A stretch of DNA of 52,770 nucleotides, from the sequence record MW508890.1, one strand, 5' to 3'. The notes beneath the pieces were generated by a model. The model was not told the DNA's origin, made no database searches, and saw only the letters and a list, made by a program, of their open reading frames with translations. The first letter of the stretch is position 1, and every line of letters begins with the position of its first letter. Made by a program: the position numbers and the translations under genes. This DNA comes from Phage PEA2-3. Of this stretch, positions 12,225 through 13,475 are shown piece by piece.

Positions 12225-12331
12225 GCACTAATGAAAAAAGTTTAAAAAAAGGTGTTTACACACTCTTTTAAATGACGTATATTAACTCACGTAACGAACA
12301 AACATTAAGCCCTGTAGACGAGGAAAAAATT

Positions 12332-12799
12332 ATGAGCGAGAAACTGACTTTTGTAACTGGTAAAGAAGAAGTTAACGGCGTACTGTATCCGGCAGCTGGT
12401 ACTGGCGCACGTTACGTATGGGACCTGGCTGATAAAGCCCATGAAGAAGGCAAGTCCAGCTCTGACGTTATGGACGAAGTTGTTGCCACTACCGAAATGT
12501 CCCGTGGTACTGTTTCTTCCCAGCTGACCTACTGGCGTAAAGCCACTGGTAAGGTTCTGGCTAAGCGTGTTGATACCGCTAAAGCAGAACGCGATGCTGC
12601 TAAAGCCGCTGAAAAACAGCGTAAAGCTGAAGAGCGTGCTCGCATCAAAGCTGAAAAAGCCGAAGCGAAAGCTGCTGAGCAGATTCGCAAAGCTGAAGAG
12701 AAAGCTGAAAAAGCTCGCCAGAAAGCAGAAGCTGCTAAAGCTGAAGCTGCTAAACTGGCTGGCGCGATCGAAGGCGACAACGAAGAAGTTGCTGAATAA
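12332..12799 (+). CDS. Hypothetical protein with Lys/Ala/Glu-rich low-complexity C-terminus
   Basis: Start at ATG 12332 after gaggaaaaaatt; C-terminal about 70 aa of AKAE-type repeats. Confidence 0.5.
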   Translation: MSEKLTFVTGKEEVNGVLYPAAGTGARYVWDLADKAHEEGKSSSDVMDEVVATTEMSRGTVSSQLTYWRKATGKVLAKRVDTAKAERDAAKAAEKQRKAEERARIKAEKAEAKAAEQIRKAEEKAEKARQKAEAAKAEAAKLAGAIEGDNEEVAE

Positions 12800-12815
12800 T
12801 AGCGCTGATCTGAAC

Positions 12816-12840
12816 GCACCTCTACGGAGGTGCATTCAAT
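12816..12840 (+). terminator. Terminator-like hairpin
   Basis: gcacctc-tacg-gaggtgc directly after the stop at 12799; weak downstream T run. Confidence 0.4.
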
Positions 12841-13365
12841 GGACATCCTTACATCTCTCTTCTTATCAACAATCAATTAAGCCTGGTGTGTTGAAACAGT
12901 GAGGGTGTCCAGTGAATGCAGTTCAATTCTGCTCGCTGACCGAGATTTGGTAAAAGCCGTGATGTGTGAGGTTCGATTCCTCCGACGCTGAAAAGGGTAT
13001 TGGCTCGCTACCTTGGCCCCAGGCGCCTGGTGTAGACGGCGGTCACAATTTTAGTTGTGGTGTTTTGGCGTATCTTTTTGACACCCGTCGGGTGCAGGTT
13101 ATCCACAATAACTCAGGTGCTAAGACACCACAACTAAGGTTGTACTTGCTGTGTGCTTTTGCCACTCCATCGGTGTAATAAGTGCAACGCTCTATACTTT
13201 CCGTGGTGAGAGCACACAGCAAGTAACGCATATGTGATTGGCTACTCGATAACACCTCCTTTCGTCTCGTCGCGGGGATTAAAATGGTAAGTCTTTTGGC
13301 CAATCTCATATGCGCTGCCTGGTTGCATAGTTACGATGCCTTGTATCTCCTTACGCCACCCTGCC
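12841..13365 (+). ncRNA. Candidate structured non-coding RNA or cis-acting structured element
   Basis: About 0.5 kb without a convincing ORF, flanked by hairpin terminators; long inverted repeats at 13047-13064/13123-13141 and 13141-13158/13209-13225; 12-bp palindrome ccaggcgcctgg at 13019-13030. Confidence 0.35.
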
Positions 13366-13400
13366 AAAAGGACCAGTTAACGCTGGTCCTTTTTATTTTT
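13366..13400 (+). terminator. Strong intrinsic terminator
   Basis: aaaa-ggaccag-ttaacg-ctggtcc-tttttattttt; A tract upstream and T tract downstream, so possibly bidirectional. Confidence 0.75.
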
Positions 13401-13418
13401 ACCAGAAGCGTAAAAAGT

Positions 13419-13450
13419 GCTTTACCACTAGAGAGTGATGTGGTATAATA
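13419..13450 (+). promoter_or_regulatory. Promoter-like element (AAGTGG-N-TATAAT family, copy 4)
   Basis: tttaccac - 17 nt - tataat with upstream tgg (extended -10-like), ahead of gene 13476. Confidence 0.5.
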
Positions 13451-13475
13451 AGTTATCTTTTAGAGGAGAGATACA

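Follow-up and report, generated by a model that had tools for sequence, protein, structure and literature searches.

In the genome of Phage PEA2-3 (MW508890.1), a BP63-like Rosemountvirus of Salmonella and E. coli, a gene-free island of about 0.57 kb lies within positions 12800-13475 of the window, by which we mean the whole analyzed stretch of 52,770 nucleotides. The patterns of substitution show, at the level of comparative evidence, that this island acts as a plus-strand RNA whose helices are kept by selection, because it carries strand-specific G-U pairs, has compensatory changes in four stems, and matches a covariance model derived from unrelated phages. By the same kind of comparison, its 135-nt core belongs to a widespread family of phage RNAs that appear to mimic the elbow of transfer RNA (tRNA) and that commonly occur in phage tRNA operons. 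We favor, with a probability of roughly 0.6, the reading that the island is a co-transcribed non-coding RNA in which lineage-specific hairpins, which may serve processing or stability, stand on both sides of a tRNA-mimic core. An initial annotation of this DNA, made from the sequence alone, had offered a phage non-coding RNA, a replication origin or another cis-acting element as explanations of the island, and the first of these options is supported; the core, which is its most informative part, had gone unseen.

The tRNA-like core and its family

The core begins with a T-loop hairpin (T1), which is followed by a nearly invariant segment holding a D-loop-like GGUAAA and the 5' strand of a long-range closing stem (P1, UGACCG with CGGUCA); P1 encloses a second T-loop hairpin (T2) and further small hairpins (Table 1). 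Exact-pattern scans of viral contigs with UCGCUGRCCGAGA, the invariant stretch after T1, showed that this layout recurs in dozens of phage contigs unrelated to one another. In the 5' half of this layout, T1 is succeeded by UCGC, UGRCC, GAGAU(U/C) and a GG segment (GGUAAA or GGUGAA), while the 3' half comprises T2 in most cases, variable hairpins, a short GG-loop hairpin, GGYCA and often a U-run, which in L026, L048, L063 and L064 comes directly after the 3' strand of P1 (GGUCAUUUUUU). We built a covariance model, R1, from 11 metagenomic phage contigs, none of them related to this phage, and its sole match in the window at E ≤ 1 is the core (72.9 bits, E about 1e-15); true tRNAs in the searched loci score only 12-14 bits. 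Over 12918-12956 the window agrees almost base for base with the family consensus (5' T-loop hairpin, UCGCUGRCCGAGAU, GG segment).

All three core helices covary. The T1 stem is built from GC, AU, CG and UA pairs in 51 distinct sequences, and at the central P1 pair (12939-13043) 27 sequences have A-U, 20 have G-C and one has G-U, with no mismatches. The T2 stem reads CUGGG/CCCAG in S144, GCCUG/CAGGC in KE25 and ACCGG/CCGGU in L015, and all five of its pairs covary in the alignment A5 of the 53 R1 matches. In this alignment 91.3% of cells are paired, compared with 73% in shuffles and 33-56% in slid controls, and 11 of the 15 pairs in T1, P1 and T2 have changed on both sides, although A5 was fitted to R1 and the pairing counts are inflated by that fit. 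T1, P1 and T2 are also recovered both by RNAalifold and by a single-sequence fold of the window core.

The core is kept in four lineages in which the neighboring 132-aa protein has diverged to 42% identity, and the segment 12933-12956 in particular is conserved between phages separated to this degree. The core is the only part of the island found outside this phage group, and the members of the family range from 0.39 to 0.72 in GC content and come from contigs of 5-412 kb. The short hairpin before the 3' strand of P1 is present in most of them. The hairpin at 12995-13019 belongs to this phage group, with a stem that reads ACCGG/CCGGU in KE25 and GGCAGU/ACUGCC in L015 (read from the sequences).

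Variants of the layout were also seen. A GC-rich subgroup (L031, L074, L085, L090, L101, L105, L107) has a conserved 3' extension after P1, CUGRCA-GCCGG-GAAAGA-CCGGC, and another subgroup (L079, L081, L099, L110) is without the second T-hairpin. A scan of genome contigs gave one true match, a Rosemountvirus contig in a metagenome-assembled genome (MAG), and seven chance matches in coding DNA.

Table 1. Positions of the core, the other island modules and the neighboring features in the window
Feature	Position	Strand	Remarks
Core, member of the phage double T-loop tRNA-like RNA family	12915-13049	+	match to model R1
T-loop hairpin 1 (T1), GCAG-UUCAAUU-CUGC	12918-12932	+	stem covaries, loop UUCRANU conserved
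Nearly invariant segment, UCGC-UGACCG-AGAUUUGGUAAAAG	12933-12956	+	P1 5' strand (12937-12942) and D-loop-like GGUAAA
T-loop hairpin 2 (T2), GAGG-UUCGAUU-CCUC	12968-12982	+	stem differs by clade, pairing kept
Hairpin GGG...CCC around conserved loop GCUCGCUACCUUGG	12995-13019	+	this phage group only
Short hairpin GCC-UGGUGUAGAC-GGC, GG loop, then P1 3' strand CGGUCA (13040-13045)	13025-13045	+	
Post-stop hairpin GCACCUC-UACG-GAGGUGC	12816-12822/12827-12833	+	UNCG-type tetraloop, no U-run
Long hairpin, 19-22 pairs	12834-12917	+	apex with conserved GCCUGGUGYGUUG, 12881-12893
Module X, 25-pair stem closing a junction of two small hairpins	13045-13143	+	invariant loops UUUUUGACA and GCAGGUUAUCCACAAUAAC
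Long hairpin, 23 pairs with G-U	13143-13225	+	common to Loughboroughviruses only; some distal mismatches in close relatives
Long hairpin, 20 of 23 pairs	13220-13321	+	Rosemountvirus-specific; absent from S144/SE4 and KE25
Intrinsic terminator ending the non-coding transcript	13366-13400	+	hairpin 13366-13393, 12 pairs (11 perfectly complementary), then TATTTTT
Promoter of the upstream 155-aa gene	12255-12283		
Upstream gene, 155 aa, K/A/E-rich	12332-12799		no function assigned
Promoter of the next gene, outside the RNA	13421-13449	+	TTTACC-17-TATAAT with TG; invariant in all relatives
Downstream gene, 132 aa	13476-13874		no function assigned

Flanking hairpins and the extent of the transcript

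The island as a whole folds far better than expected, with -237.9 kcal/mol for the plus strand of 12805-13402 (z -8.9; none of 100 shuffles as good) and -200.3 kcal/mol for the minus strand (z -5.5). Four long stems flank or follow the core; they span 22, 25, 23 and 23 positions, and with G-U counted 18-19, 25, 23 and 20 of these are paired. Two of them had been described in the initial annotation as inverted repeats, and both are real and longer than noted: the first extends over 25 pairs (13045-13069/13119-13143, all paired counting four G-U) and the second over 23 pairs counting G-U (13143-13165/13203-13225). The other two, 12831-12852/12899-12920 and 13220-13242/13299-13321, had been missed. 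The stem at 12834-12917 has 97% of cells paired across eight lineages, with seven pairs showing compensatory changes, and it conserves several U-G wobbles at which the other strand would have C-A mismatches. In the stem of module X 98% of cells are paired, seven pairs are compensatory and one G-U is invariant, and among close relatives all four substitutions turn C-G or U-A into U-G; the comparison with related phages that had been proposed as a check of the island thus came out in favor of an RNA. Module X lies 5' rather than 3' of the core in the KE25 clade, indicating that it is a separable unit, and outside this phage group its pattern GCAGGTTATCCACAATAAC found nothing, since it matched relatives only. 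The hairpin at 13220-13321 has a nearly invariant stem and a highly variable interior.

These substitutions also bear on whether the island acts as DNA, either as a replication origin or as a recombination or attachment site, with the inverted repeats serving as cruciforms or as binding sites for proteins. The location within a replication and nucleotide-metabolism module would suit such an element, and tRNA-like 3' ends are classic attachment sites, but the stems depend on G-U pairs of one strand and have gained such pairs by substitution (U-A to U-G), which makes sense for pairing at the RNA level only. Moreover, the stem sequences vary while the pairing is kept, whereas the opposite would be expected where a protein binds. 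The phage group has been described as lytic, and the region lacks iterons (its direct repeats are short and have two copies only), an AT-rich block (GC 0.44-0.47) and an inflection of skew at 13 kb. We regard a function of this type as very improbable. A 12-bp palindrome, CCAGGCGCCTGG at 13019-13030, is present as had been reported, but it is not conserved as a palindrome in the Loughboroughviruses, and for this reason it was rejected as a hairpin.

With regard to the limits of the transcript, the view that the island lies between two terminators holds at its 3' end only. There, a hairpin followed by a T-run is called by the terminator scan, and it is kept in all clades, with CCAG/CUGG replaced by CCUG/CAGG. 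The hairpin at 12816-12833, in contrast, has no T-run and receives no call. Its stem has UUCG as the loop in S144 and KE25 and is replaced by other complementary stems in Erwinia phage SOI901 (CCCCUC/GAGGGG) and contig L014, and it is probably a stable 3' cap for the upstream mRNA. The promoter and terminator scan found no promoter-like site inside the island and no terminator after the upstream gene; since the scan gives the island no internal promoter and does not call its first hairpin as a terminator, the island is most likely a 3' extension of the transcript of the upstream gene. The next gene was correctly credited with a promoter of its own. The promoter region 13405-13449, AAAAAGTGCTTTACC..TAGAGAGTG.TGT.GTATAAT, is nearly invariant across lineages with a downstream protein only about 42% identical, which suggests a conserved type of phage promoter with an upstream element.

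The statement that the island contains no convincing open reading frame (ORF) also stands, and it is relevant to several GenBank records in which one or more small proteins are annotated here. ORFs of 26-88 aa do exist and some records annotate one to four of them, but the annotations differ in strand and position between records, and the small ORFs are not conserved. Their frames are broken by indels of 1-2 nt at 13074, 13114, 13186, 13201, 13259, 13263, 13366, 13389 and 13396 among isolates with 94-99% identity in the island region, and one annotated ORF (13284-13448) runs across both the terminator and the next promoter. That the island encodes proteins is in our judgment hardly credible.

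Within the genus Rosemountvirus (type BP63, about 52 kb), more than 40 phages of Salmonella and Escherichia share 94-99.5% identity with the island region, and in Loughboroughvirus (ZCSE2, S144, SE4) the identity is about 80-83%; the match to a third clade (KE25, fHy-Eco03, SE1_KM) is partial only, and a fifth lineage, L015, is similar to the window at the island locus. A gene-free gap of 0.52-0.68 kb is kept at this place in every relative. Both flanking genes are part of a replication and nucleotide-metabolism module (helicase, thymidylate synthase, polymerase), and Pfam and PHROGs were uninformative on the flanking genes except for a MazG-like pyrophosphatase downstream. The 155-aa upstream product, which always has the non-coding island on its 3' side, has a repetitive K/A/E-rich C-terminal half (annotated as repeat_region in several records), and its homologue in phage fHy-Eco03 has been reported to be virion-associated.

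Several smaller features of the island were recorded as well. The motif GCCUGGUG occurs twice, once at 12881-12893, where the first long hairpin has its apex, and once at 13025-13040 in the short hairpin before the 3' strand of P1, and in SOI901 and L014 the apex motif stands in a different hairpin. CU-rich tracts resembling anti-Shine-Dalgarno sequences lie at 13253-13261, 13346-13353 and 12856-12866; CACCUCCUU (13253-13261) is identical to the 3' end of 16S rRNA, and UCUCCUUA resembles it. This 16S-like tract was set aside as not significant, since the window has a single match where 0.33 would be expected. About 25 nt 5' of the terminator, every clade has a CUCCUUG-type motif, which could form pairs with the AAAAGGA arm of the terminator. 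A long-range helix between about 12958-12970 and 13340-13355, proposed by the minimum free energy fold of 598 nt, was discarded as incompatible with the covarying T2.

Some of the database records that carry the island are odd in themselves. Two Rosemountvirus-like genomes are filed as E. coli plasmids (NZ_JBVNBN010000003.1 from strain YZ_2_1, 52,771 bp; NZ_CP067310.1, 53,474 bp), for which a pseudolysogen, a carrier state or contamination is possible. A 34-kb contig assigned to 'MAG: Bacillota bacterium' (L050, JAEWER010000021.1) has a nearly identical island, with one mismatch in about 200 nt, and looks like mis-binned phage DNA. The host label of 'Listeria phage 220426122051' (PP583539.1), 99% identical over the region to this Salmonella/E. 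coli phage, looks doubtful. In the 47-kb record of Salmonella phage SPHG1 (L023, MW413353.1) the island matches at three separate places with different neighbors, which suggests that this record is rearranged or mis-assembled.

Association with tRNA genes and the proposed mechanism

Across the family the element tends to be found next to tRNA genes. In ten distinct contigs or phages (L025, L048, L059, L065, L068, L069, L074, L075/L100, Cellulophaga phage phi19:3 and Rhizobium phage RHph_N38) it lies 0-9 nt from a tRNA on the same strand, and in L110 it is situated inside an array of 20 tRNAs. The upstream neighbor is often tRNA-Gln, and in the two cultured examples, in both of which the element is unannotated, it follows tRNA-Cys (phi19:3) and tRNA-Pro ... 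tRNA-Gln (RHph_N38). About two thirds of the members are without a nearby tRNA, so that adjacency is a tendency and not a strict criterion, and the window and its close relatives depart from it, with no tRNA or transfer-messenger RNA (tmRNA) genes found by ARAGORN. On some members ARAGORN makes odd or overlapping tRNA calls (tRNA-Leu, tRNA-Ser, a four-base anticodon; L075 931-1022, L100 4375-4466, L085 3453-3548, L080 4717-4797), which are likely false annotations caused by the T-hairpins of the element.

A link to tRNAs reappears in the sister lineages. Among more distant relatives, found through the downstream protein, SOI901 and the 53.9-kb metagenomic contig L014 share the flanking genes, the first two hairpins and the terminator with the window; between those hairpins and the terminator they carry tRNA-Pro(UGG) and tRNA-Gln(UUG), without the element, and the apex motif mentioned above lies 3' of these tRNAs. 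The core in the lineage of Phage PEA2-3 thus occupies the position of tRNA-Pro(UGG) and tRNA-Gln(UUG) in its sister lineages. One could take this coincidence, together with the resemblance of T1 (GCAG/CUGC) to the T-arm of the SOI901 tRNA-Pro, to mean that the core is the decaying remnant of a tRNA-Pro/tRNA-Gln cluster, with T-arm-like hairpins as pseudogene fragments in otherwise neutral spacer, and such a remnant would tolerate the natural deletion of phage rivia described below. We give this account little credence, since the architecture and a motif of about 20 unpaired nucleotides recur in unrelated phages across the whole range of GC content, with compensatory changes in three helices, since the core persists in four lineages despite the divergence of the neighboring protein, and since RHph_N38 has the element alongside intact tRNA-Pro and tRNA-Gln.

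The proximity to tRNAs, which need processing, could also point to a cis-acting device only, in which the hairpins and the core would punctuate a polycistronic transcript, capping the upstream mRNA and offering sites for RNase III and RNase P, with P1 and a U-run ending the tRNA operon elsewhere, and no RNA acting in trans. The flanking stems of 20-25 bp, the terminator that closes the island and the U-run directly after the 3' strand of P1 in many members all fit such a device. In the window, though, P1 is followed by CAAUUUUAG and then by more structure, with no terminator, this phage has no tRNAs to process, and the core, with its two T-loops, its D-loop-like segment and about 20 unpaired bases that do not vary, far exceeds what a processing site or terminator needs. 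A purely cis-acting device is accordingly possible but, in our estimation, unlikely.

In the mechanism that we propose for the co-transcribed RNA with its tRNA-mimic core, transcription would start at the promoter of the 155-aa gene and end at the terminator, with the island forming the non-coding 3' part of the transcript. The near-perfect hairpins of 20-25 bp would act as modules for processing or stabilization by double-strand-specific, RNase III-type enzymes, and in this way a stable core RNA may be set free or protected; the island stems are of the duplex length expected of an RNase III substrate (about two turns, at least 20 bp). The core may then be handled by the tRNA-recognizing machinery of the host (RNase P/Z, enzymes of the TrmA/TruB type) and would work by occupying a factor that recognizes the tRNA elbow, in an accessory and host-dependent role.

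Several observations weigh against this proposal. The core alone is no more stable than shuffles (z +1.0), so that its support is purely comparative, and the pairing counts behind that support are inflated, as mentioned above. P1 is rivaled by a possible local hairpin of invariant bases, CUCG-CUGAC-CGAG. We infer cleavage by RNase III and recognition by tRNA enzymes from the predicted shape only. All-against-all BLAST of the ORFs within 3 kb of 52 elements gave clusters within lineages only and no conserved protein partner, so that no protein family recurs beside the element to point to a target. The 3' half (13144-13362), with only 17-38% identity to relatives, may be little more than spacer hairpins. 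Finally, phage rivia (L017) has a clean natural deletion of 145 nt (12952-13096) that removes T2, the 3' strand of P1 and the left arm of module X, showing that these parts are dispensable in the laboratory. This tolerance would imply an accessory function, as expected for an element of host interaction, and it is also compatible with a purely cis-acting role or with partial decay.

The core might also act in trans as a decoy of the tRNA elbow, which would sequester or misdirect a host factor, such as a tRNA-cleaving defense nuclease or a factor of tRNA processing or translation. We hold this to be a tentative and distinctly unlikely possibility. If it were true, the element would be interchangeable in function with extra tRNAs, which would account for the presence of either tRNA-Pro/Gln or the element at one locus among sister phages, and it would represent a new widespread class of phage anti-host RNAs.

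Relation to known RNAs and significance

A covariance-model search against known RNA families had been suggested for the island, and it returned no family of Rfam 15, whether at the gathering threshold or at E ≤ 10, in the window or in 12 other element loci; the best sub-threshold matches in the window are generic hairpins (e.g. mir-957 at 23 bits). There is no match to the cloverleaf tRNA model RF00005 in the window even at E ≤ 10, and no tmRNA match there by ARAGORN or Rfam; L048 and L065 share with tmRNA models only hairpin-sized fragments of 15-17 nt (6-12 bits). The element resembles tRNA in its T-loop hairpins with UUCRANU, its D-loop-like GGUAAA and its 'acceptor-like' closing stem, but differs from it in having no anticodon arm in most members and no CCA or acceptor end, and in having two T-loops instead of one, the first of which lies outside and 5' of the closing stem. 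By eye, no acceptor 5' strand complementary to UCGCUGA, as in a split or permuted tRNA, was found.

Copies of the tRNA elbow are known from tmRNA, the tRNA-like domains of YrlA, the tRNA-like structures of plant RNA viruses and the mascRNA of MALAT1, all of which are handled by tRNA-recognizing enzymes. The element appears similar to these in combining a T-loop with a D-loop analogue; it is unlike them in having no end that could be aminoacylated. Y RNAs gave no Rfam match, provided that Rfam holds those families, and there is no recurrent neighbor protein, although no search was aimed at Ro60/TROVE. In phage T4, species 1 and 2 (rnaC and rnaD), whose function is still not known, are also small non-coding RNAs at the end of a tRNA cluster. 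They were rejected as homologues, as the best R1 score, 14.4 bits, falls on tRNA genes and not on rnaC or rnaD. The T4 rnaC (L112 2909-3047) ends in a perfect T-arm-like hairpin, CCGGGUUCGAAUCCCGG, which scores 12.3 bits and is unrelated to the element family.

Larger and simpler phage RNAs offer partial parallels. ROOL and GOLLD are structured non-coding RNAs of several hundred nucleotides that often lie near tRNA genes, and the whole island, as a structured RNA of about 570 nt, is similar in this respect; unlike them, it has no Rfam match at E ≤ 10 and consists of separable modules whose order varies by clade. The early and late transcripts of phage T7 contain intergenic hairpins at which RNase III processes polycistronic RNA, and the intergenic hairpins of the island resemble these as predicted substrates only, with several of them stacked around a conserved tRNA-like core and not one per gene junction.

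The core apparently belongs to a so far undescribed family of tRNA-like RNAs and is a putative tRNA mimic. Full-text literature searches gave no description of the element, with the motif sequence leading only to unrelated papers on mouse obesity and neuroscience, and the papers that mention Rosemountvirus state 'no tRNA' and leave the island unmentioned. In two E. coli assemblies with this phage, the NCBI pipeline leaves the position of the element without annotation. The element is missed by tRNA finders, Rfam and the NCBI pipeline, and in some cases it has been misread as an odd tRNA or as small ORFs. With a covariance model, the annotation could be corrected in the genomes of Rosemountvirus and Loughboroughvirus, phages that are used in the biocontrol of Salmonella and E. 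coli. The phage itself offers a tractable system, with a culturable host, a genome of 52 kb and a natural deletion mutant in rivia.

The tRNA clusters of phages are mainly read as aids to codon usage or as replacements for tRNAs destroyed by host defenses. A conserved tRNA-mimic RNA in such clusters is a candidate new player in the conflict between phage and host over the tRNA pool or the machinery of tRNA processing, because the element is found in the tRNA clusters of many unrelated phages and, in one lineage, replaces the tRNAs themselves.
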